DNA of 64,000 bases, from NCBI GenBank assembly GCA_033763895.1, contig JANRJQ010000003.1, forward strand, positions 29,791 through 93,790. Reading direction: 5' to 3'. The first letter of the stretch is position 1; the number at the start of each line of letters is the position of its first letter. The notes under the pieces are model-generated. The model was not told where the DNA came from. It worked only from the letters and a program-made list of their open reading frames with translations, and did no database searches. Below are positions 15,621 to 47,716 of the stretch, piece after piece. The translations under genes were made by a program, and so were the position numbers. This DNA is from Chloroherpetonaceae bacterium. GTDB taxonomy: Bacteria > Bacteroidota > Chlorobiia > Chlorobiales > Thermochlorobacteraceae.

Positions 15621-15650
15621 TTGACATTAAGTCGGGGTTGTCGTTAATTT
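15621..15650 (+). promoter_or_regulatory. Candidate sigma70-type promoter for the C25/PorV locus
   Basis: TTGACA at 15621-15626, 18-nt spacer, TAATTT at 15645-15650, about 60 nt upstream of the ATG at 15710. Confidence 0.45.
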
Positions 15651-15709
15651 AGAATAAGCCAAAGATTTCGCTTCAATTTCTTTTAAGTCGAATTATTGAA
15701 TCCGCAAGA

Positions 15710-18700
15710 ATGAATTCATTTTATTTTGAAAAGCTAAACGTGAACAGAGTTTTTTTTGCTTTTTTGGCAATTTTTCTTTTTATCGCTTTAAATCAAAGCG
15801 ATGTGTATTCGCAAAGCGAATTAAAAGAAAATCGTCCAGCTCAGAATCCCTTAAATACAAATACCAACCCATTGGAGTCGTCACTTCCTCAAACTTTGGA
15901 TGAAGGTTTTGCGTCACAATCAACCGGTGAAACAAAACCAACGCTTGTATCTCTCAAGCAAAAGTCGAAAGGGATTTCAATTCTTACATTTAATTTTCCT
16001 TCTCCTTACAAAAAGCTAAAGGGTGTCGCAGATAAAATTGAAGAAACGCTTGGCTTGCCTAAAGTTGATCACTTAATTTCCGGTATCGGATACGATGTCC
16101 CTTCTTTTTCATATATCATTCAAGGAAAAATCACCTCAGTAAAAATTGTTTCGAAAGAGCATCTTGAATCCTTACCGCTTTCGCTAACCTTTCATCCCGA
16201 GGAATTTGAAGATATCCCAATCGGAAATGATGGACCTAAGCCTAAACCGGTTTCAAGAGAATCAAGACAAAAAGAATTCAATGTATTTCCCGAAAAAGAG
16301 ATTTCATTTTTCTTTGGTGGGTCGATGCGGGGTGTTCCAATTTCAACAATTACCGTTTCACCATATCGTTATGATCCCCGAAAAAAAATGGTAACCGTTT
16401 CAAAAACCGTGACGGTTGAAGTAAGTTTTGATCTCGCAGAGTCCGATAAGATCGCAATTGGAATCGATGAAGAATCAATCTTAAAATCGAAACCCAGAAA
16501 GAAATTACCTTACTCACAAAGTATATCAAAAGGTAATATTCAAATGGCTTCCCCAAATCTTGGAGAAGGTAAAAATCGTATTGCAAATCTTCCGGTTTCT
16601 CAAATTCCCGGACTTTCTTCGTTACCGGTTCGACCAAAAGCAAAAATTATTACCGATAAAGATGGAATTTATCGTATCGGGTTTTTTGAATTCCAAGAGT
16701 ATTTAAGGAGCGGAAGCATTACAGCAGATTTTTTCACGGCTGACCCAAGAACCTTACGCTTGTTTAATAAGGGAATTGAAATTCCGATTTTAGTAAAAGG
16801 TGAGCAAGATGGGGCATTTAATCGCAATGACTTTATTGAGTTTTTTGGCGAAAAAAATGCGTTAAAATTTGCCGATTCCCAACGGCCTGATATGTACACC
16901 GATCCCTATTCCGATGAAAACATCTATTACTTGTATTGGGAACCCAGTTTGAACAACACCAATAGAGGTTTAAGGCTTGTTGAAATTCCCGTGGAAGTGA
17001 GGAATCCTGTAGCAAGAGGTTTTAATCTTGCAACACAAACCTTTCGATCGAACCTTCATTTCGAAGAAGACCTTGGCGGATTAGGTGGACTTGTACCAAG
17101 CCAAAGTATTGAACAGAATCTCAGTCGCGCGTTCGCGAGGTTCAATACCACAGAGTATAAGAGGACGAGGAACGAAAGCGATTTTCGCGACCGAGCATTT
17201 TGGGATGCGGTATTTCTAAATTCGCAACGGGAATTTCCGATTGAACTTCCCGGCTTAGCGGATGTCGCCGATGATTCTATCCGCATCAAAGTTGCCTATC
17301 ACGGCTTAAGCTACGATTCACGCTTTAATCCACAGAATCGAGCAGTGTTACAGTTGGGAGGCGTTGTTGTAGGTCAAACCAATTGGGGAAATGGCGCAAA
17401 GTCACAAGAACTGAAGATTGATAACTTTGTCACCTCAGCCCGTCAGTTTTTTGTGGGTGTTCGAAGAGATTATGATACAATCAAAACAATTCAAGTTGCC
17501 AATCAGGACGATAATTCGACCGTACTGCCGGGAGAAGAAGGCCGTTCTTTTTTTGTTAATTGGTTCAATATTTCATATCCAAGAACCTATCAGGCATTTG
17601 ACGATAAAATCTCTTTTTCAATCCCTGTTGGACGCGCAGCGGGTCGATACGAATTTTTGATTACCGGTTTTACAACACCGAATATTCAAATTTACAAAAG
17701 AGGTGTTGGTATCCTGAATAACTTTACTGTAGAGCCTTACTTTGAAATTATAGAAAACCCAGATGGCTCTGCGACAAGAATAGAAAAACAAGTTTATCGA
17801 ATTCGCTTTCAAGATAATGTCATCAACCCAAATGACGTAATTTATGACGCTATTCCACAAACAGAAAAATTGCTTCCACTTCGTGTTGAAAAATTGCTTC
17901 CTTCAAATCTTTATGAGCCCGGTGTGAGATTGGTTGATAAGACAAATGACTACAGTTTTATCATTATTACCTCATCAAAATTTATTGGCGAGCAAAATTT
18001 TAACGATTCTCGCAATGTCATTTTTCAGTATAAAACATACCGAGAGGAACGCTTAGCACAACTTGGCGAGCGTTCAAGAGTATTGGTGGTTACAGCAGAA
18101 AGTATCTACGATGAATTTAATTATGGTATTAAAAGTCCAAGAGCAATTCGAGATTTTCTTGATTATGCCTATCACGAATGGCGTGAATCTCCAATTTATG
18201 TCCTCTTAATTGGGGGTGCCTTCCGAATCAAAAATTCCGGGAATCTTGTTCCAACAATGAGAATTCAAACCATTGAATTTGGAGCGACCGCAGCTGATGC
18301 GTGGTATGTCATGATTGATGGCACAGATGAATCCGGAAAATTAGATCTCCTACCTGATATGCAGATTTCACGAATCGCGGCATCAAACACAGGAGATGTA
18401 GCGAATTATTTAGAAAAGCTTAAGCAATACGAAGAATACGCTGTTACCGGAGAGTGGCGAAACCGAGTGATTATGATCGCTGGAGAGGCGGGTAGAACCA
18501 GTTTTAACGATCCAAACGATAATAAGATTATCCAAACCGATGAAATTATCCGGCAAAATTTAGGTCGCAATTTTTTTGTTTCAAGAATCAACACAGGTGA
18601 GGGAAGATTTCCATCTAACCCGCAACTAGACATTCATCTTGGAAACAGTGAGACATTAAGAAACTTGATGAATAACGATGGGTCTTTGGTCCTAAACTTT

Positions 18701-21385
18701 ATCGGTCACGGAGGGGGCGCGGTTTGGAGCGATAGTCAAGTTATGGAACTCGGTGATGTCTCGAGGCTATCCAACACCACTGCCTTGCCATTCGTTACAA
18801 GTATGTCCTGCTTTACAGGCGCTTTTGACGATGGAATAGGTGCCTACACGCTTTCTCAAGCTTTGACTTTATCAAGAAGAGTCGGTTCGATTGGGGTTAT
18901 TGCTTCGGCGGGATTTGGTTGGTACAGAAATGACTTTCTGATGTCCCAATCAGTCTTTGAATTTTTATTAACCGACCAGTATCAAGGGCTTTCAATCGGT
19001 GATATGCTGTTTCGAGGTAAGACACGCTATTACCTCCAGTATAAATACACAGACATCGACATCGCACCCTCAATGATGTATCAATACGGCGTTTTTGGAG
19101 ATCCTGCGTTGAGGCTTGCTTCTGCAGGGGTAACAAGAAGCAGAAATTCACTTTCAGGCGGAGCGAATACCGCAAATCTTAAAGCAGTTTCAAGCCTTGT
19201 CGCGTTAAATGACTCATTAAGAATTACCGGATCAATTCCGGGTATTACGGAAGGCAATGGTTTTGCAAAAATTTCGGATCAAGACAATTTTGATGTTACG
19301 GTACAACTCCAACCATTTGTCGTTCGTTCAGGAAAAATAGGGCAAATCGTTGGCGGCGTGTTTCGCGATACGCTTGCTATTCAAATTACTCAGCCTCCAA
19401 CGATTACTGCTACAAATGTTCAAAATTTTAAAGGCGGGCAGTTCAAGTATTACATTCGCTCAACTGCTCAGCCAGATGGTGTGCAACCTTCCGATATCTC
19501 GGGAAGAGTACCCTTTATTTTGCAGGGAACGGCAATTCAAAAGGTGATTCCATCATTAACAATTCAAGAGGCGCAAAATAAATCGATAACCTTTTCAGTT
19601 CAAGCAGAGTCTAGTCAGCCAATTGATAGTGTCAGAATTGTCTCTGAGATTTACAGGCCAAGTGCAACCAACCTAAATCAAAATACCCTCATCTATACCC
19701 GAAGCTTTTCGACAAGCAGATCTCAGAATGTCTTTATAGCGGTTGATTCCATCCCGGCCGCCTTTATGAACTTTTCCAACCGCATCATTTATTATGCAGA
19801 GTTATTTCGAAACGGAACGAGGCAAATATCACAAGTCTCATCTGAATTTATCGGCAATCCAAATGACATCTCAGCGGTTCCAAAAGCAAGAACTGGGTTA
19901 ATCCAATACTATGATAACCAAACAATTGGTTTCTATATGGAAAATGGAAAACCGAGAATTGGAGCTGATATCTTTAATTGGAAAGGAACTGAAGTTCAAA
20001 AGGCGTTAGTTTATTTCTATCATAATTCGGTTATCAATAGACAAACATCACAGCCACCAACCCTTAGAACAAACCCGATTCTTTTGGGAATTGACACGAT
20101 TTCTCTTCCGGCTTTTGACCCAACCAAAACCTCAGGCGTTAGAGCCTCAATCCCAGTTCCTGACACACTTAATTTATTTTCCACACTGAATGTCGGGATA
20201 AGGGTTTTAGCAGATACTTCCGGTATGAGTTATGAAGAAAGTTATCAGAATAACTTATCCAATCAAATTCCGATTAATTACACCCTTCAAACAATAAATG
20301 ATCTAACTTCAACGACGATTTCGATTGCGGGAGATTTAACAGTTAAGTTTGAACCATCAACATTTCAATTGTCAAAAGCAACTGTAATTTCAAAAATTGT
20401 TAACCCAGTAAAAATATTGCAGCCCGACAATCAATTTGTCCCTTTTCAATCCGATCCTTTCAATCCAATAGCATTTCAAATTTCACCCTCAGATTCTGCT
20501 GAACCTTTGTTAAAACCTGTCACACTTACATTTAACATTGCCAAAAATGTATTTAGCGCAGACAGGTCTAACATTTATGCATTTATTTACAATTCGTCTT
20601 TTCAGAGGTGGTTAAAAATTCCTGATCAACAGAGATTAAACGATACCACAATTTCATGTCAAGTCAACGAACTAGGTCAATTTGCACTGATGCATACGAC
20701 GGATTTACAAAGGCCAATTGTTACGCTAGGTATTGAGGGACAGGTTTATTTACCAAATGGCCCGGCTCCAAAAAGGCCAAGAGTTTCAGCCACGATTCAA
20801 GATCAAAATGGGGTTTTTGTTGATCGACGGCAAATGAAAGTGATTCGAAATGGCGATAGTTCGGAAGCAGTTCAAGGAAAACTCTTAATACCTCAAGCAT
20901 CATTCAATTCTAATACAATTGGCGTAGTATATGATGATGAATTTGATCAAGGTTCTCATGAATTAATATTTGTTTTTAACGACGCAAATCTTAATGAGAC
21001 CCGAACTGAACCAATGCTTTTTCAGGTGCAAACAGAGTTTAACTTGAATGTGTATGGGGTTTATCCAAATCCATTTGAGGAACAAACACGAATTGTTTAC
21101 GAGATTAGCGGAGAGCAAGCCGCCGAGGTTCTTGAAATCAAAATCTATAATGTTGCCGGAAAGCTCATTAATTCTTTGAGAAACGGCGAAATTGGGGCTA
21201 CAGGCTTTATACTTGAAAATTTAGCTTCTACAGATTTGAATAGCACTGGTGCTAAAATCGTAATCTGGACGGGTCAAGATAAAGATGGTGCACCAGTTGC
21301 GAATGGTGTTTATTACATCAGAATTCGTGCGACTTATCAAGGCAGAAGCTTTGAGCAAATCTTAAAAGCAGCTAAAGTAAGATGA
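15710..21385 (+). CDS. PorU/gingipain-like C25 cysteine peptidase with T9SS-type (FlgD-Ig) C-terminal domain
   Basis: Signal peptide; propeptide-like segment; DGIYRI...DFIEFFG...DPYSDENIYYL; IYDEFNYG..SP.AIRDFL; catalytic GHG (His1000) and SMSC (Cys1034); FGDPAL; C-terminal YPNPF...IYNVAGKLI...WTGQD..G..VANGVY. Confidence 0.88.
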   Translation: MNSFYFEKLNVNRVFFAFLAIFLFIALNQSDVYSQSELKENRPAQNPLNTNTNPLESSLPQTLDEGFASQSTGETKPTLVSLKQKSKGISILTFNFPSPYKKLKGVADKIEETLGLPKVDHLISGIGYDVPSFSYIIQGKITSVKIVSKEHLESLPLSLTFHPEEFEDIPIGNDGPKPKPVSRESRQKEFNVFPEKEISFFFGGSMRGVPISTITVSPYRYDPRKKMVTVSKTVTVEVSFDLAESDKIAIGIDEESILKSKPRKKLPYSQSISKGNIQMASPNLGEGKNRIANLPVSQIPGLSSLPVRPKAKIITDKDGIYRIGFFEFQEYLRSGSITADFFTADPRTLRLFNKGIEIPILVKGEQDGAFNRNDFIEFFGEKNALKFADSQRPDMYTDPYSDENIYYLYWEPSLNNTNRGLRLVEIPVEVRNPVARGFNLATQTFRSNLHFEEDLGGLGGLVPSQSIEQNLSRAFARFNTTEYKRTRNESDFRDRAFWDAVFLNSQREFPIELPGLADVADDSIRIKVAYHGLSYDSRFNPQNRAVLQLGGVVVGQTNWGNGAKSQELKIDNFVTSARQFFVGVRRDYDTIKTIQVANQDDNSTVLPGEEGRSFFVNWFNISYPRTYQAFDDKISFSIPVGRAAGRYEFLITGFTTPNIQIYKRGVGILNNFTVEPYFEIIENPDGSATRIEKQVYRIRFQDNVINPNDVIYDAIPQTEKLLPLRVEKLLPSNLYEPGVRLVDKTNDYSFIIITSSKFIGEQNFNDSRNVIFQYKTYREERLAQLGERSRVLVVTAESIYDEFNYGIKSPRAIRDFLDYAYHEWRESPIYVLLIGGAFRIKNSGNLVPTMRIQTIEFGATAADAWYVMIDGTDESGKLDLLPDMQISRIAASNTGDVANYLEKLKQYEEYAVTGEWRNRVIMIAGEAGRTSFNDPNDNKIIQTDEIIRQNLGRNFFVSRINTGEGRFPSNPQLDIHLGNSETLRNLMNNDGSLVLNFIGHGGGAVWSDSQVMELGDVSRLSNTTALPFVTSMSCFTGAFDDGIGAYTLSQALTLSRRVGSIGVIASAGFGWYRNDFLMSQSVFEFLLTDQYQGLSIGDMLFRGKTRYYLQYKYTDIDIAPSMMYQYGVFGDPALRLASAGVTRSRNSLSGGANTANLKAVSSLVALNDSLRITGSIPGITEGNGFAKISDQDNFDVTVQLQPFVVRSGKIGQIVGGVFRDTLAIQITQPPTITATNVQNFKGGQFKYYIRSTAQPDGVQPSDISGRVPFILQGTAIQKVIPSLTIQEAQNKSITFSVQAESSQPIDSVRIVSEIYRPSATNLNQNTLIYTRSFSTSRSQNVFIAVDSIPAAFMNFSNRIIYYAELFRNGTRQISQVSSEFIGNPNDISAVPKARTGLIQYYDNQTIGFYMENGKPRIGADIFNWKGTEVQKALVYFYHNSVINRQTSQPPTLRTNPILLGIDTISLPAFDPTKTSGVRASIPVPDTLNLFSTLNVGIRVLADTSGMSYEESYQNNLSNQIPINYTLQTINDLTSTTISIAGDLTVKFEPSTFQLSKATVISKIVNPVKILQPDNQFVPFQSDPFNPIAFQISPSDSAEPLLKPVTLTFNIAKNVFSADRSNIYAFIYNSSFQRWLKIPDQQRLNDTTISCQVNELGQFALMHTTDLQRPIVTLGIEGQVYLPNGPAPKRPRVSATIQDQNGVFVDRRQMKVIRNGDSSEAVQGKLLIPQASFNSNTIGVVYDDEFDQGSHELIFVFNDANLNETRTEPMLFQVQTEFNLNVYGVYPNPFEEQTRIVYEISGEQAAEVLEIKIYNVAGKLINSLRNGEIGATGFILENLASTDLNSTGAKIVIWTGQDKDGAPVANGVYYIRIRATYQGRSFEQILKAAKVR

Positions 21386-22524
21386 AAATCGTACTCAATT
21401 TTTCCAAGTGTTTCGTACCCGAGAGGATGATCTATTTTATGTTATCAAAAGTTTTTGTCTTCAGAAAAAGTGGATTGTTTTTGCTTTTTTTAGCGGCGCT
21501 TTCAATAGAAATTGAAGCTCAAACCGTTCGTGATGATTATCAATACACGGCCGCATTTTTAGATATCCCTTTGGGGGCACGCGCATTAGCCTTAGGCGGT
21601 CAGTTTACACCCATCGATAACATTGACGGAACAGCATTCTTCTGGAACCCGGCTGCTGTATCTGCAACAAAAGGAAATGTGATTTCTACGATGTATTCAA
21701 ATCAATTTGGTACAATAGGAAGCCCTCTTTCAAATTACTTTCATATTGGATACTCTCACGAACTTTCAAGTGGTTTTGGATTTTCAGTGAATTGGATTAG
21801 AAACAGTGTTTCAAATATTCCATTAACAGGAGCAATTGACCCGACACAAGGGTTTGATCAAATCATTCAACGAGTAAAAAATGGTGAGTTTAATTTAGGT
21901 GAATTTAATAACGCAGATGACGCGCTATTTTTAACCTTTGGTAAAAATCTATTAAGTCAAGTTGACTTTGGTTGGCAATATTTTAAGGTGCCAATCGAGA
22001 TTCCAATTGGTCTTACGATTAAGTATATCAACCAAAGCTTTGGCGGGAATCCGAATGTTGATTACCGAGGAAGTGGAATCGGTGTTGATTTAGGAACACT
22101 ATTTAAGATGAACTTAGGGCAACTCTTTAAGACACAAGCTGTTGGGGATTTTGCTTTGGGTTTTACAATTCGAGATTTGTTTAACACGCCGGTTTCTTGG
22201 AATACTTTTTTAGGAACACGGTCAACCATACAAAGATCGTTTCTTGTGAATTTATCTTACAAGCAACAACTGAATTTTATATCCAGCTCACTTCTCGTCT
22301 CTTATACTTTCAATAGCAAATATCAAGGTGAAAATTCGATTGGGGTTGAATATAAGTTCCAAGATATAGTAACACTAAGGGCTGGAACATTAGAAGGTAA
22401 CTTTACTATTGGCGCAGGAATAGCGATTATTCAGGCGGTTTATATTGATTATGCATATCAAGCCAATGATCTTGGAGGTCCGCATAGAGTAGGTCTTACG
22501 ATGAATTTAGCAAAACTCTTTTAA
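21382..22524 (+). CDS. PorV/PorQ-family outer-membrane barrel protein
   Basis: AAFLDIPLGARALALGG...AFFWNPAA N-terminal signature, IDYAY...LGGPHRVGL C-terminus; true start may be 21427 or 21439. Confidence 0.82.
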   Translation: MKIVLNFSKCFVPERMIYFMLSKVFVFRKSGLFLLFLAALSIEIEAQTVRDDYQYTAAFLDIPLGARALALGGQFTPIDNIDGTAFFWNPAAVSATKGNVISTMYSNQFGTIGSPLSNYFHIGYSHELSSGFGFSVNWIRNSVSNIPLTGAIDPTQGFDQIIQRVKNGEFNLGEFNNADDALFLTFGKNLLSQVDFGWQYFKVPIEIPIGLTIKYINQSFGGNPNVDYRGSGIGVDLGTLFKMNLGQLFKTQAVGDFALGFTIRDLFNTPVSWNTFLGTRSTIQRSFLVNLSYKQQLNFISSSLLVSYTFNSKYQGENSIGVEYKFQDIVTLRAGTLEGNFTIGAGIAIIQAVYIDYAYQANDLGGPHRVGLTMNLAKLF

Positions 22525-23381
22525 TGAAACCTTCCAAAAGAGTATATAAAACCGTTTTAAATTTCGAATCGATGATCTCAACAAAAGTTTTGTTAGTTCT
22601 TTACTATGCCATTACTTTGTTTTTAACTGCATGTGTTGAACCTGCCGACCCACCGGTTCCACCAACTCCCGAATTTATCCCTAAGAGTTCAGATACTGCA
22701 AGAATCGAAACAGGAATAAGGCCTGCCTATGGCAGAGATGGAATCTATATTGAATGGAAAAACATTAACTCAAGAGATATCTCAGGTTATCGTGTATTTA
22801 GAACCGTTGATACTTTAGGGGGAAGACCTGTTAACTTCAGATTGTTGCGCGAAATTCCAATTGGAACTCAGGTTATTGGCGGGGATACTACTTTTCTTGA
22901 TACACAGGTTGGTCTTGATACAGCTTATTATTATCAAGTTGCCTCGTATTCAAGATTTGGAACTCAAAGCAATCTATCGACCACCGAAAGTTACCGATTA
23001 ACAAGAAGACCTTCTCTTTTAGGCCCAAAAAATGTTATAGATTTACCAAGTGATAGTATAATAACTTTTTTTTGGAACAAACCTAATGTCAGCAGTGGAT
23101 ATTATGTTATTAAAGTCTACGAATTTAATGGGTCTGAAAACTTTATTGAAGAAGAATGTATGGCAGTAGGATACCAGAAATCAACCTTTTTGTTTACAGA
23201 TTCACTTAGGATTGACTTTAGAACGATTCGCACACAACTTTCTTTTGACGAAGGGATTCGTGTTTTTAAGAAAATACAATCAGGAAACAGGCAGTATCGT
23301 TGGCGTGTGTTTCTTTATCCAAGAGGAAGAGAGCTTAATTTTGGATCAGCTTCTGAAGCCTTACCTTTTATCATACGATAG
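22524..23381 (+). CDS. Lipoprotein with fibronectin type III-like domains
   Basis: Lipobox LTAC; IEW...GYRVFR...FLDT....YYYQVASY FN3 pattern. Confidence 0.72.
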   Translation: MKPSKRVYKTVLNFESMISTKVLLVLYYAITLFLTACVEPADPPVPPTPEFIPKSSDTARIETGIRPAYGRDGIYIEWKNINSRDISGYRVFRTVDTLGGRPVNFRLLREIPIGTQVIGGDTTFLDTQVGLDTAYYYQVASYSRFGTQSNLSTTESYRLTRRPSLLGPKNVIDLPSDSIITFFWNKPNVSSGYYVIKVYEFNGSENFIEEECMAVGYQKSTFLFTDSLRIDFRTIRTQLSFDEGIRVFKKIQSGNRQYRWRVFLYPRGRELNFGSASEALPFIIR

Positions 23382-23409
23382 GTTTTTTATCATCATAAAA
23401 TTGAATTCA

Positions 23410-23943
23410 ATGAAAAAGTTTAAACTGACCATCCCTTTTTTTGTAATTCTGCTGATTACTGTTCAACCGGAAAAAATTTTTTCACAAGCTTTTGGCAATA
23501 ACCAAGATGTTTCAACCCCAAGAGTTGATTTCTCAGCAGGACCAACAGTTTATCAATTTACTCAGGCAAAGGGAGTTCAAATTGATGTAAATTTATGGGG
23601 TTTTGTAGGCCGGCCGGGAAAGCATTACATTTCATATGTAACGAACCTTATCGATTTGCTATCTGTTGCTGGTGGGCCAGATCGGGAGGCCAAGCTTGAT
23701 GAAATCCGTATCATCCGTTACTCAAATCAAGACACAACAATTGTTGAGCGTGTATTAAGAGTTGATATAGATAGGTTTATTGAGACTGGTGATATGTCCG
23801 GTATTCCAGTGTTGCTTCGTGGAGACACAATCATTGTACCGGGTGGAACTCTAAACTTGATACGCGATTTTAACTTTGTTTTACAAACAATTCTTGGGTT
23901 AATGAATTTTACTTTAATTCTCGTTACGCTTAGAAATCGTTGA
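23410..23943 (+). CDS. Secreted SLBB (beta-grasp) domain protein with C-terminal hydrophobic helix
   Basis: Signal peptide from ATG 23410; VNLWGFVGRPG, LLSVAGGP and LLRGDTIIVP are SLBB/Wza-like motifs. Confidence 0.8.
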   Translation: MKKFKLTIPFFVILLITVQPEKIFSQAFGNNQDVSTPRVDFSAGPTVYQFTQAKGVQIDVNLWGFVGRPGKHYISYVTNLIDLLSVAGGPDREAKLDEIRIIRYSNQDTTIVERVLRVDIDRFIETGDMSGIPVLLRGDTIIVPGGTLNLIRDFNFVLQTILGLMNFTLILVTLRNR

Positions 23944-24033
23944 TTTTTTTAAAAGAAGCCTTTATTGAAACAAAAAAAAGTACTATTTTACACTATTGCT
24001 TCCAGACCTAACAAACTGCACTCTAAGTGTCTT

Positions 24034-25257
24034 ATGAAGAAATTTTTACAAGTTGTCTTAATTCTGTTTCTCTTCTCTTCTACTACAGAGAAGGTTTTTT
24101 CTCAATATGTACTTACATCTGGGGGAAGGCTGATGAGAGCTCAGGAAGCATATCTTCCAAATGTGGGGGCGTTTTCAATTTATAATCACTTTGACTTTAA
24201 TACGGTAGCGGGTGCTTATGGAGATGGGTTTGGGGGAGCTGTTCCACAATGGTTAATGAGAAATATCACCGTCGGTGATTATGTGGTTTTCCAAAATTTA
24301 CAAGTTTCGGGAGCGGCTTTGCTTTATCAAGATGTTCACCATCTTGATACCAAAAGCAGTTTCCTTGAAAACATCACTTTGGTTGCGAAGTACGCATCTC
24401 TCCCTCTATTTAATGAAAATATTTATGTTGGATTTTTAGGAAGTTTAATGATTCCGTTAGGTTCAGGTGTCTATAATTCTTATGGAAATCCTTACACAGC
24501 TGGTGGGACTGAAATCGGAGTTATGACGATTTTATCCTATTACACCGATGAACTTTTCCCTAGAGAATCATTTAGCGTTAACCTAAATTTAGGTTATTAT
24601 AACTTTCTTGATAACGGTAAAGACATCTCAAATAACTCAAATCCGTTGCCTTCTTCAGCCTCTGCTTCAGCGCTGAATTATGCTTTAGCTTTTAGGCTTC
24701 CAACTTCTTCTGTAGAGTTAATGGCTGAATTTTGGGGATGGTCGTTTGTAAACAAGCCACCACTTCAAGCCTATACAAGAGAAGATTTATCTTTTATCAC
24801 TGTTGGCTTAAAATTGAGGCCACTTGAAACGGCTGCTTTAACATTGGGAATTGATTACTTGCTATCGGGTAATAAAGATGAAACCTCTTACAACTCATTT
24901 TATGATATCATTCAGAGGCCCGGAGCAAACCCTATCAATTATACACAGTGGAGAGCCATTATCGGTATTCAAGTCAATATCAGTAACGGAACTGCAAGCA
25001 CCACCAGATTTGGCTCAACTGAAGAAGAAGTTCTTCTGCCCGAAACAACATCTCAGGGTGCTATGATAATTTTACGCAAATTGGAAGAAAATTACAGGCC
25101 CGGAGGTAAGGATGATGCCATTACAACCAAAGGAAAAGAAGAATTGAGTCGGAGAAGAATAGAAATAGAACAAAATCTTGAAGTCTTAAGGCAAATTTTG
25201 CGTCAAGCAGAAAGTCAACAAGGGACTTCTCAACCTTCAACAAACGAACCTAAATAA
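24034..25257 (+). CDS. Predicted outer-membrane beta-barrel protein with C-terminal coiled coil
   Basis: Signal peptide from ATG 24034, amphipathic strands, C-terminal ELSRRRIEIEQNLEVLRQIL helix; paralog of the next gene. Confidence 0.65.
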   Translation: MKKFLQVVLILFLFSSTTEKVFSQYVLTSGGRLMRAQEAYLPNVGAFSIYNHFDFNTVAGAYGDGFGGAVPQWLMRNITVGDYVVFQNLQVSGAALLYQDVHHLDTKSSFLENITLVAKYASLPLFNENIYVGFLGSLMIPLGSGVYNSYGNPYTAGGTEIGVMTILSYYTDELFPRESFSVNLNLGYYNFLDNGKDISNNSNPLPSSASASALNYALAFRLPTSSVELMAEFWGWSFVNKPPLQAYTREDLSFITVGLKLRPLETAALTLGIDYLLSGNKDETSYNSFYDIIQRPGANPINYTQWRAIIGIQVNISNGTASTTRFGSTEEEVLLPETTSQGAMIILRKLEENYRPGGKDDAITTKGKEELSRRRIEIEQNLEVLRQILRQAESQQGTSQPSTNEPK

Positions 25258-25284
25258 ATTTTTAATAACAAATATCAACGCTTT

Positions 25285-26739
25285 ATGTCAAAAAATTATA
25301 CTAAAAAGTTTTTGTTATTAGTTTCACTGCTTGTATTAACAGTTAGCTCAACATTTGCACAATACACTTATACGGCAAGTGGAAGATTGATTCAGGCTCA
25401 AGAAGCGTTGATTCAACGATCTGGTAGCTATGCTTTTTTTAGCAGAACGGATTTTAACTTTTTACCTGATGCTTATAGAAATAATGGAATCCCAGTCGCT
25501 CACTCATTAGTGAGAACATCGCTACACGCCGATTACTCATTACTTGACAATGTTCAATTTGGCTTAAATGCGATGCTCTATCAAGATATTAACCATCGTG
25601 ACAAGTTCAGTTCATTCCTTAATAATGTTACTTTAGTAGGAAAAGTGGGTTCTATCTCTCTTTTTTCTGATAATATCTATGCTGGATTGTTGCTTTCAGT
25701 AATGGTTCCAACTGGTGGTAATAGTGTTTGGAATTCCTATGGTAACCCATACTCTGCTGGTGGTGTGGAATATAGTGGTAATGTTCTTTTGTCTTATTAC
25801 TTAGACGAGATATTCCCACAAGAATCGATAAGTTTTACTGCAAATTTTGGCTTTTACAACTTTAATGATGTTGGCGGTAATTTGGCAAATGTTTCTGACC
25901 GTGAATTGCTCAATCAAGGTGCCTCGACCACATCTCTAAATTATGCTATTGGTGCAAAAATACCTTTTCAAAATTTTGACTTGATGCTTGAGTATTGGGG
26001 TTGGTCTTTTGCAACAGAACCACCAGTAAATGCATATACAAGACTCAATGCATCTTTCTTATCAGCTGCGATGAAATTTAGAACTTCTCGTAGTTTTTCC
26101 ATAACATTAGGTTTTGAATATCGCGTGGGTGGCGGTTCAGAATCAACAACAGTTCTTTCCCCAATTAACGGTATTGTTCCTCGCCCCTCAGCAATTACAG
26201 GAGTTCCTTACACCAATTGGAGAGGAATTCTTGGTTTTGAAATGAATTTCCCGACTTTCAGAAATACGACTTATTCTGGTGGAAGTGGTGGATTTGATGA
26301 ATTCTCTGATGGTCAAGTAATGCCATCATCGCAGGATTCTTATTCATTGATTAGGAAAATTCAAGAAATTGATGAAGATAAAGAAACAATTGCAAGAAAA
26401 ATTGAAGAGTTCAGACGCCGCCGTCAAGGTATTGAAGCAAATCTTGAACAAATAAGACGCGCACTGAATGAATCTAAAAAGCCAGTAGAAGAAGCACCTG
26501 CCCCAAGTCCGGCACCGGCACCAGAAACACCGGCACCGACGCCTGCGCCAAGTCCAGCTCCAGAAACACCGGCACCGACGCCTGCGCCAAGTCCAGCACC
26601 AGAAACACCAGCACCGACGCCTGCGCCAAGTCCGGCACCAGAAACACCAGCACCGACGCCTGCGCCAAGTCCAGCTCCGGAAACACCAGCACCGACACCA
26701 GCGCCAAGTCCAACGCCTACTCCAAATCCTCAATTTTAA
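25285..26739 (+). CDS. Predicted outer-membrane beta-barrel protein with coiled coil and Pro-rich repeat tail
   Basis: Signal peptide (TFA-Q), paralogous to 24034..25257, EFRRRRQGIEANLEQIRRAL helix, then PAPETPAPTPAPS x5. Confidence 0.65.
   Translation: MSKNYTKKFLLLVSLLVLTVSSTFAQYTYTASGRLIQAQEALIQRSGSYAFFSRTDFNFLPDAYRNNGIPVAHSLVRTSLHADYSLLDNVQFGLNAMLYQDINHRDKFSSFLNNVTLVGKVGSISLFSDNIYAGLLLSVMVPTGGNSVWNSYGNPYSAGGVEYSGNVLLSYYLDEIFPQESISFTANFGFYNFNDVGGNLANVSDRELLNQGASTTSLNYAIGAKIPFQNFDLMLEYWGWSFATEPPVNAYTRLNASFLSAAMKFRTSRSFSITLGFEYRVGGGSESTTVLSPINGIVPRPSAITGVPYTNWRGILGFEMNFPTFRNTTYSGGSGGFDEFSDGQVMPSSQDSYSLIRKIQEIDEDKETIARKIEEFRRRRQGIEANLEQIRRALNESKKPVEEAPAPSPAPAPETPAPTPAPSPAPETPAPTPAPSPAPETPAPTPAPSPAPETPAPTPAPSPAPETPAPTPAPSPTPTPNPQF
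26515..26709 (+). repeat. Coding tandem repeat, 5 x 39 bp
   Basis: ccagaaacacc/ccggaaacacc recurs at 26521, 26560, 26599, 26638 and 26677; units differ only at synonymous sites. Confidence 0.97.
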
Positions 26740-26750
26740 TTGAAGGTTTA

Positions 26751-26786
26751 AAATGATAAAGGGCTCTTCGGAGCCCTTTATCATTT
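26751..26786. terminator. Bidirectional intrinsic terminator
   Basis: Perfect 16-bp stem aaatgataaagggctc-TTCG-gagccctttatcattt between convergent genes. Confidence 0.9.
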
Positions 26787-47682: not shown

Positions 47683-47716
47683 AATATAAAAAGCGGCTTT
47701 AGCCGCTTTTTATATT
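47683..47716 (-). terminator. Intrinsic terminator downstream of ptrB
   Basis: aatataaaaagcggc-ttta-gccgctttttatatt, 15-bp inverted repeat with T tracts. Confidence 0.85.

Follow-up and report, generated by a model that had tools for sequence, protein, structure and literature searches.

The stretch analyzed here, called the window throughout, comprises 64,000 nucleotides of contig JANRJQ010000003.1 (positions 29,791 to 93,790) from the Chloroherpetonaceae bacterium assembly GCA_033763895.1, a genome that we designate G000. It contains an envelope locus of six same-strand open reading frames (ORFs; positions 15710–26739, + strand), all of which were re-confirmed. A first-pass annotation had read the locus as a PorU/PorV-like pair followed by a lipoprotein, an SLBB protein, and two tailed barrels, and had proposed a variant type IX secretion system (T9SS). 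The six genes, followed by their context, are:

15710..21385, + strand: gene 1, C25 cysteine peptidase, PorU paralogue, 1891 amino acids (aa)
21382..22524, + strand: gene 2, divergent outer-membrane barrel of the PorV/FadL type, probable cognate of gene 1, 380 aa
22524..23381, + strand: gene 3, lipoprotein outside any named family, carrying two FN3-like beta-sandwich domains, 285 aa
23410..23943, + strand: gene 4, mini-OPX (outer-membrane polysaccharide export; mini-Wza) protein with a leader, one SLBB beta-grasp domain, and a C-terminal hydrophobic helix, 177 aa
24034..25257, + strand: gene 5, plugged barrel, predicted to have 12 strands, of the COG4313/FapF type with a C-terminal helical hairpin, 407 aa
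25285..26739, + strand: gene 6, paralogous to gene 5 and in tandem with it, with repeats rich in Pro and Ala forming a tail that starts at about 26476, 484 aa
12430..15558, + strand: secA, identified by its Pfam SecA domains; upstream context, outside the module proper
15621..15626, + strand: TTGACA hexamer with no acceptable −10 partner; promoter unsupported
26751..26786, no strand assigned: terminator hairpin with a perfect 16-bp stem, 4-nt loop, and T/A-rich flanks, −28.0 kcal/mol

The genes are tightly packed. When ORFs and gaps were re-derived, the description of six co-oriented genes that overlap or lie at most 90 bp apart was confirmed, with distances from gene 1 to gene 6 of −4, −1, 28, 90, and 27 bp. 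Later ATG codons are the probable starts of gene 2 (21427 or 21439) and gene 3 (22572), and the 1/2 and 2/3 overlaps may in fact be short gaps. A leader or lipobox had been assigned to every gene, which also held: genes 1, 2, 4, 5, and 6 have a hydrophobic N-terminus ending before Gln (read from the sequence by eye), and the lipobox cysteine of gene 3 (codon 22632) is invariant in 63/63 homologues.

The perfect terminator is present as claimed. Its 16-bp stem is the longest perfect stem of the window and sits between gene 6 and the convergent hemB, for both of which it is likely a common bidirectional terminator; a consensus terminator scan did not include this hairpin among its listed sites. 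A second perfect hairpin (15 bp, 47683–47716), also between convergent ORFs, is likely another bidirectional terminator. The TTGACA promoter was not borne out. The hexamer exists, but no −10 element at 16–18 nt from it passed the promoter scan, and the window has fewer promoter-like sites (37) than its shuffles (42.2 ± 6.2). The transcript may begin at secA, since this gene lies 151 bp upstream of gene 1 on the same strand, is a recurrent neighbor, and in Kryptonia-type loci comes as close as −3 to 13 bp to the C25 gene.

The C25 domain of gene 1 spans residues 750–1136 (PF01364, 252.6 bits, E 9.7e-75). Since its dyad residues, His1000 (codon 18707) and Cys1034 (codon 18809), both align with gingipain R and are invariant in 54/54 copies longer than 1500 aa (window copy counted), the enzyme is likely to be active. 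A type A C-terminal domain (CTD) occupies residues 1784–1873 (TIGR04183, 26.2 vs. a cut-off of 23); by PF18962 the CTD scores 23.9, under the cut-off of 27. Gene 1 falls below the cut-offs for PorU (NF033707, 211.6 vs. 420) and PorU2 (NF052324, 193.8 vs. 450). Gene 2 matches the PorV family model NF033709 over residues 56–376 with an E value of 7.1e-18 (65.3, cut-off 90), and its profile matches the solved PorV structure 6h3i_F (E 8.1e-6). It is below the cut-offs for PorV (20.5 vs. 250), PorQ (43.0 vs. 220), and PorV2 (NF052325, 52.2 vs. 325), and showed no match to BamG (NF053685) at E 0.1. Its closest matches, with 51–57% identity, come from Chlorobiales, Thermochlorobacter, and Chloroherpetonaceae. 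A C25 gene is found directly upstream of the gene 2 homologue in 73 of the 75 assessable loci.

The source genome encodes three C25 proteins and three C25/PorV-type pairs in all. Genes elsewhere in G000 exceed the cut-offs for PorU (922.7/420), PorV (280.8/250), PorQ (222.4/220), PorD (213.8/170), and PorZ (366.8/260); genes 1 and 2 are thus not the PorU and PorV of this genome. A PorU2-like gene (C3:195962–201544, 382.1 of 450) and a PorV2-like gene (C8:478436–479581, 257.9 of 325) are likewise unlinked to the locus. Judged by these scores, genes 1 and 2 are a third, paralogous C25/PorV-type pair beside the canonical set. The earlier label of a PorU/PorV-like pair therefore stands for the C25 domain, the CTD, and the PorV-family similarity and fails for identity, as the canonical four lie elsewhere. 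A second, shorter C25 of PorU size is also encoded in 5/5 other module carriers tested.

Some related arrangements were observed. A lipoprotein-like gene also comes next after other PorV-family paralogues of G000 (L160:5794–9301 and L157:8655–10919; L160 has a CTD protein too), and such barrel-plus-lipoprotein pairs recur in this genome. A further PorV-family-like barrel is fused to a C-terminal ComEA helix-hairpin-helix domain (L162:6513–7643, G000:C11). In five loci (L019, L099, L120, L127, and L135) the C25 gene is in several pieces, as is secA in L019, reflecting either an assembly error or a real break.

Gene 3 is modeled as tandem FN3-like sandwiches (pLDDT 94.8). The modeled fold differs from the one reported for BamH, a member of the BAM complex in Bacteroidota, which is of a carbohydrate-binding kind (PMC12611786). 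When the gene 3 homologues were scored for the acidic lipoprotein export signal, 34/63 were net acidic, 20 neutral, and 9 basic. A complex prediction for genes 2 and 3 from 63-row alignments gave a score of 0.01 (mark 0.32), which weighs neither way.

The SLBB domain attributed to gene 4 was substantiated by the family: PF10531 matches 12 of 13 aligned members, the window copy alone being unmatched, and the family profile matches solved OPX proteins (best 9n9a, E 1e-8). Gene 4 also weakly matches TIGR03027, the OPX model of the PEP-CTERM/exosortase system (E 3e-5). It has no match to Poly_export (PF02563), and both G000 matches to that domain are other genes. A hydrophobic C-terminal helix lies at about 23842–23940; for this conserved segment the mean best 19-residue hydropathy is 1.95 in module copies vs. 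2.00 in wzc-linked relatives. The module copies form one group in a quick tree (SH-aLRT 93). G000 yielded no short OPX other than gene 4.

Mini-OPX relatives outside the module are common. We inspected 19 such loci, namely the 15 best non-module matches and 4 from family f4, and 17 of them adjoin either Wzc (15, kinase domain over the cut-off) or a chain-length protein (2). By these comparisons gene 4 belongs to a mini-Wza family normally sited beside wzc. The segment preceding the SLBB core (window 23485–23700, alignment A9) appears to resemble the first Poly_export strand, as if the mini-OPX had arisen via an internal Poly_export deletion. At L233:2990–7991 (G098), genes for a mini-OPX and a sugar-binding lipoprotein come directly after secA, while C25, the PorV-like gene, and wzc are all absent; this may be a module remnant.

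The model of gene 5 (pLDDT 86.9) shows a barrel of 12 strands whose N-terminal part forms a plug and whose C-terminus forms a helical hairpin. Its best structural matches, which are tied, are the COG4313 channel 4rl8 (Z 21.7, root-mean-square deviation (rmsd) 2.9, 242 aligned) and FapF 5o65 (Z 20.8, rmsd 2.7, 234 aligned; Foldseek E 3.8e-8), followed by KdgM (Z 20.1, 170 aligned). Identity of this type of barrel to COG4313 and FapF is 9–15%. An outer-membrane barrel with an even number of strands has its C-terminus in the periplasm, so the modeled hairpin is likely periplasmic. Genes 5 and 6 are identical at 160 of 403 aligned positions, and gene 6 would accordingly adopt the same fold. The top structural matches of genes 3 and 5 include no T9SS component beyond generic folds (PorU CTD, Z 8.0; PorV, Z 13.4), and a sequence search of solved structures with the barrel profiles returned coiled-coil noise only. 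That genes 3–6 do not resemble PorZ or PorK/L/M/N was upheld: no named component, PorP included, was matched at E 0.1 in Pfam or NCBIfam, and the same was true of 23 barrel homologues.

Single-sequence searches yielded only 3 and 5 homologous proteins, and a profile search was used to define the barrel family, which has 194 representatives at 50% identity (E 0.001 or better). The window barrels do not match PF13557; of 30 scanned homologues, one is over the cut-off and one just under. The tail is exchanged within the family, with an AgmX/PglI domain (TonB_C-like, NF033768) in 7 of 23 aligned members. The models suggest that the family looks like a modular membrane anchor or a small channel; the shared barrel fold by itself shows no function. 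An unlinked G000 paralogue bears the AgmX/PglI domain in place of the hairpin (G000:C4:655161–656576, that is, L032:9162–10577; see also L028–L031, L033, and L069–L071), which combines an outer-membrane barrel with a TonB-type periplasmic domain in a host with a motor-less T9SS. Members P0036, P0102, and P0157 have C-terminal caspase (C14), TPR, or DUF5683 domains. The long fusions P0020 and P0141 appear to be gene-calling artefacts and were disregarded.

The order C25, PorV-like, lipoprotein, SLBB, barrel is kept in 14/14 of the close relatives fetched that have a match; one 84%-complete close relative gave no module match. The same five-gene order recurs in 5/5 genomes of the distant family f8 of the same phylum. 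When GTDB species were scanned with the gene 2 alignment, 87 loci were confirmed and 80 of them kept, some repeating genomes of the closer surveys. These come from Chlorobiales, Calditrichota, Kryptonia, KSB1, Latescibacterota, and further lineages of the Fibrobacterota–Chlorobiota–Bacteroidota (FCB) group. The alignment has two short patterns that limit the reach of the scan, and lineages missing from it are not thereby shown to be module-free. Where enough flank was available, the lipoprotein is found at 73/79 loci, the mini-OPX at 70/76, and the barrel at 48/71. The module order is kept across several phyla while the flanking genes vary. A recurrent context is an upstream secA (11/11 assessable close relatives, 5/5 in family f8, 19/49 wider loci).

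A tandem second barrel is present in only 3/14 close relatives and 4/71 wider loci. It is lineage-specific, and the conserved unit is thus four to five genes, not six. Of the two tailed barrels described earlier, gene 5 stands as a modeled 12-stranded barrel with a helical hairpin, and the second is not a general part of the module. At four weakly matching loci (L145, L146, L148, and L149) the C25/PorV-like pair is kept and all downstream genes are absent. A search of 301 genomes of the phylum found the barrel profile in 15 and the full-length lipoprotein in 16 (E 2.3e-45 or better; next 6e-19). In family f4, which belongs to the same order and is inferred to be Chlorobiaceae, barrel and lipoprotein were found in 0/64 genomes and SprA in 0/18. 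The idea of a variant module in FCB lineages outside Bacteroidia is supported by this co-occurrence of the downstream genes with the C25/PorV-like pair across genomes, and the objection that they might not co-occur failed (14/14, 5/5, and the wider loci). The literature searched, in which subscription papers were thinly covered, contained no account of this operon. The module is conserved across phyla and uncharacterized in that literature. A gene of about 240 aa for an RmlA-like sugar nucleotidyltransferase (named by eye) lies within the module at 7 loci, between the mini-OPX and the barrel in L112, L117, L119, L121, L129, and L131, and also in L125.

We also looked at the Wzc genes of the module carriers. 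The sole full Wzc of G000 (C14:219973–222447) has no OPX beside it; a glycosyltransferase, a membrane protein, and a PHP-type phosphatase (named by eye) are encoded upstream. In a first survey, the best Wzc lacked an OPX neighbor in 6/6 carriers (G000 and five others), and of four further Wzc-like copies in two carriers, two had such a neighbor and two did not. A Wzc match at E 1e-40 was obtained in 28/28 carriers vs. 15/27 non-carriers. We then surveyed the best Wzc in 25 of the 28 carriers (the three weakest, partial matches were omitted; five carrier stretches end at contig boundaries) and in all 15 non-carriers. An OPX was found within about 4 kb in 1/25 carriers, whereas it was within two genes in 15/15 non-carriers.

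A fast tree places the partnerless Wzc proteins in three groups interleaved with OPX-flanked ones, requiring 3 changes, of which at least 2 are forced by starred branches. The survey thus amounts to two or three independent contrasts, not forty, and on this tree it is not explained by a single lineage. The non-carrier locus L234 has a long OPX alongside a mini-OPX–wzc pair, so that long and mini-OPX can coexist with separate partners. Gene 4 is likely the partner of the unlinked Wzc. The earlier suggestion of a link to glycan export gains from both lines, the wzc-adjacent relatives (17/19) and the partnerless Wzc of carriers. By eye, the partnerless genes (L254–L303) have two conserved contexts: Chlorobiales have GT2, YbhN-like, (PHP), wzc (in G000, C14:216881–222447, that is, L263), and Calditrichota-type genomes have ftsK, lolA-like, wzc, UDP-sugar dehydrogenase.

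A model search for T9SS components in the G000 assembly, which is 99% complete, had a divided outcome: one full-length SprA is encoded away from the window (C4:495673–502431; L001, L163), and GldM, GldN, GldK, and GldL were not found. Positive controls validated the GldN, GldM, and GldL models; GldK had none. The CTD count came to 62 matches over the cut-off, and several PorV-family genes are present. SprA was also found in 10/10 relatives of families f1–f3. A 2025 paper holds SprA to be absent from Chlorobiota (PMC12611786), which fails for G000 and these ten relatives. Other sources place T9SS in Bacteroidetes only (TXSScan, PMC4793230) or possibly in other FCB phyla (PMC11285876).

The 50 genomes behind the distant loci, many of them incomplete, have SprA in 49, GldN in 0, and GldM in 0. 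GldN is over the cut-off in 74 of the 301 phylum genomes and in none of the 15 that are barrel-positive. SprA without detectable GldN is common in the phylum: of 60 GldN-negative genomes picked from 24 families, all have SprA and G146 alone has the module. The module is found only alongside a motor-less T9SS, yet most motor-less T9SS are without it. As 59 of these 60 SprA-positive, GldN-negative genomes have no module, it is not a general motor substitute.

We put at roughly 0.5 the probability that the locus encodes a second station for T9SS processing, one that processes or anchors a subset of secreted proteins in functional association with a capsule-like polysaccharide exported by Wzc. By extension from PorU/PorV biology, the gene 1 peptidase would exit via SprA, the gene 2 barrel would hold it at the surface, and CTD cargo would be cleaved there by transpeptidation. 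By extension from Wza/Wzc biology, gene 4 would oligomerize in the outer membrane as a helical pore, with the unlinked Wzc feeding it. The least supported steps are that the lipoprotein and the FapF-type barrels would scaffold the peptidase and polysaccharide halves, and that the exported polymer itself or its lipid-linked form would be the acceptor or binding matrix for processed cargo. The covalent form of the proposal is quite unlikely. In it, in several FCB lineages with a motor-less T9SS, the second sortase would attach CTD proteins to capsule or exopolysaccharide exported by Wzc and mini-Wza, not to anionic lipopolysaccharide (A-LPS), within one outer-membrane assembly that includes the FN3 lipoprotein and the FapF-type barrels. 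The distribution of SprA is in favor of a processing station: it is present in 49/50 locus genomes, and the SprA-less family f4 is also without barrel and lipoprotein.

Several observations weigh against the coupling to polysaccharide. The canonical PorZ and PorQ are encoded, so an acceptor route of the lipopolysaccharide (LPS) type is already available. The barrel is absent from 23/71 loci, the Kryptonia-type among them, and is thus dispensable or unlinked in some lineages. Apart from the RmlA-like gene at 7 loci, no wzc or other polysaccharide-synthesis cluster occurs in the 80 module loci. The Wzc contrast has its own exceptions and limits: carrier G351 has an OPX adjoining its best Wzc, two further Wzc-like genes of G339 are also without an OPX neighbor, 5 of the 15 non-carrier loci contributed to the training of the mini-OPX profile used in the survey, and the genomes are related, so that the counts overstate independence. 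One or two long Poly_export OPX are encoded elsewhere in 5/5 carriers tested (unlinked to wzc in G000), and such a protein, rather than gene 4, could serve the partnerless Wzc.

The strongest alternative is an old, co-transcribed cluster of outer-membrane housekeeping genes behind secA with no mechanistic coupling, which we regard as somewhat unlikely. The C25/PorV-like pair would use the PorZ/LPS acceptor or release its cargo, the mini-OPX and Wzc would act independently, and the lipoprotein and barrels would have jobs of their own. That secA, which serves all exported proteins, is itself a conserved neighbor (19/49) fits this explanation, as do the canonical PorZ, the four weak loci that keep the pair without the downstream genes, and the barrel relatives that occur unlinked elsewhere with AgmX/TonB_C-like, caspase, or TPR domains at their C-termini. 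It does not readily account for four genes holding their order across several phyla despite changing flanks, nor for the mini-OPX, whose relatives are nearly always beside wzc, being apart from it precisely in the carriers, nor for the single group formed by the module copies (SH-aLRT 93, quick tree). At the other extreme, the locus could be the ordinary porU-porV of the genome with unrelated neighbors. The C25 domain, the CTD, and the adjacent PorV-family gene are indeed as in Bacteroidia, but other G000 genes score as PorU, PorV, PorQ, and PorZ and lie nearer to PorU2/PorV2, while the window pair reaches 211.6 and 20.5. These scores refute the identity at the sequence level and leave this explanation next to no probability.

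The missing motor raises another explanation, in which the downstream genes replace the GldK/L/M/N ring and motor, and the barrel tails with the SLBB protein form a trans-periplasmic link that energizes SprA. Carriers are SprA-positive with GldN in 0/50, GldM in 0/63 (controls 2/2), and GldL in 0/4 (control 1/1), barrel matches (15/301) never overlap with GldN matches (74/301), and the unlinked barrel paralogue bears a TonB_C-like domain. However, 60/60 other GldN-negative genomes have SprA and 59 of them are without full-length lipoprotein and barrel, and no inner-membrane motor gene is present at the locus, which makes this very unlikely. We give just as little weight to a Fap-like secretion unit, whose FapF-type barrels would export an unfolded polypeptide with the C25 enzyme as its processing protease. 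FapF ranks high in the structural comparison for gene 5 (Z 20.8), but the small-molecule channel COG4313 matches equally (Z 21.7, a tie within 1), the loci contain no gene for a candidate subunit, and the barrel is the least conserved member of the module. The C25 protein, moreover, bears a T9SS CTD and has a PorV-like barrel as its partner.

T9SS anchoring is known from a few Bacteroidia, with one PorU and an LPS acceptor, and the locus adds a second, deeply conserved sortase-like station. If the link to the polysaccharide is mechanistic, T9SS anchoring would gain a novel acceptor, and the association between exosortase and exopolysaccharide would have a convergent counterpart. Three unnamed families are defined here, the FN3 lipoprotein, the mini-OPX without Poly_export, and the tailed 12-stranded barrel. 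The mini-Wza assignment of the SLBB protein and the contrast in Wzc neighbors are new and make the link to glycan export testable.

The closest known system is the PorU–PorV–PorQ–PorZ complex of Porphyromonas gingivalis (PMC10202324, PMC11285876). In the PorU model (PMC10202324), SprA exports a C25 enzyme with a CTD, a PorV-family barrel retains it, and the enzyme passes its cargo to an amine of A-LPS that PorZ supplies. The His/Cys C25 enzyme with its own CTD, the PorV-family neighbor, and the presence of SprA with many CTD proteins are common to both. Gene 1, at 1891 aa, is larger than the solved PorU (1156 aa), and the pair is below the PorU/PorV cut-offs, coexists with the canonical set in a host without detectable GldK/L/M/N, and is linked to the FN3 lipoprotein, the mini-OPX, and 12-stranded barrels instead of PorQ and PorZ. 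The putative PorU2/PorV2 of NCBIfam (NF052324, NF052325) are similar in being an extra C25/PorV-like pair beside the canonical one, but the window pair is under their cut-offs and better candidates are other, unlinked G000 genes. With COG4313 (4rl8) and FapF (5o65), gene 5 shares a predicted 12-stranded barrel with an N-terminal plug; its helical extension is C-terminal, unlike the coiled coil of FapF, which is N-terminal.

Gene 4 shares SLBB homology with Wza and has its hydrophobic C-terminal helix where class 1 Wza has the pore helix. Its family is normally beside wzc, but wzc is unlinked to the module. One OPX survey describes Poly_export in all three OPX classes (10.1101/2022.02.11.480155); gene 4 differs in being without Poly_export, in its length of 177 aa, and in not being a lipoprotein. 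The class 3 OPX/barrel translocon of the same source resembles the locus in that an OPX gene adjoins a barrel gene, but the gene 5 model has 12 strands vs. 18 in the PgaA-like barrel. The PEP-CTERM/exosortase system (PMC1569441) is alike in genomically tying a C-terminal sorting transpeptidase to exopolysaccharide export. Its enzyme (a membrane exosortase vs. the surface C25) and its signal (PEP-CTERM vs. the T9SS CTD) are unrelated to those considered here, and the resemblance between the two systems is an analogy only.

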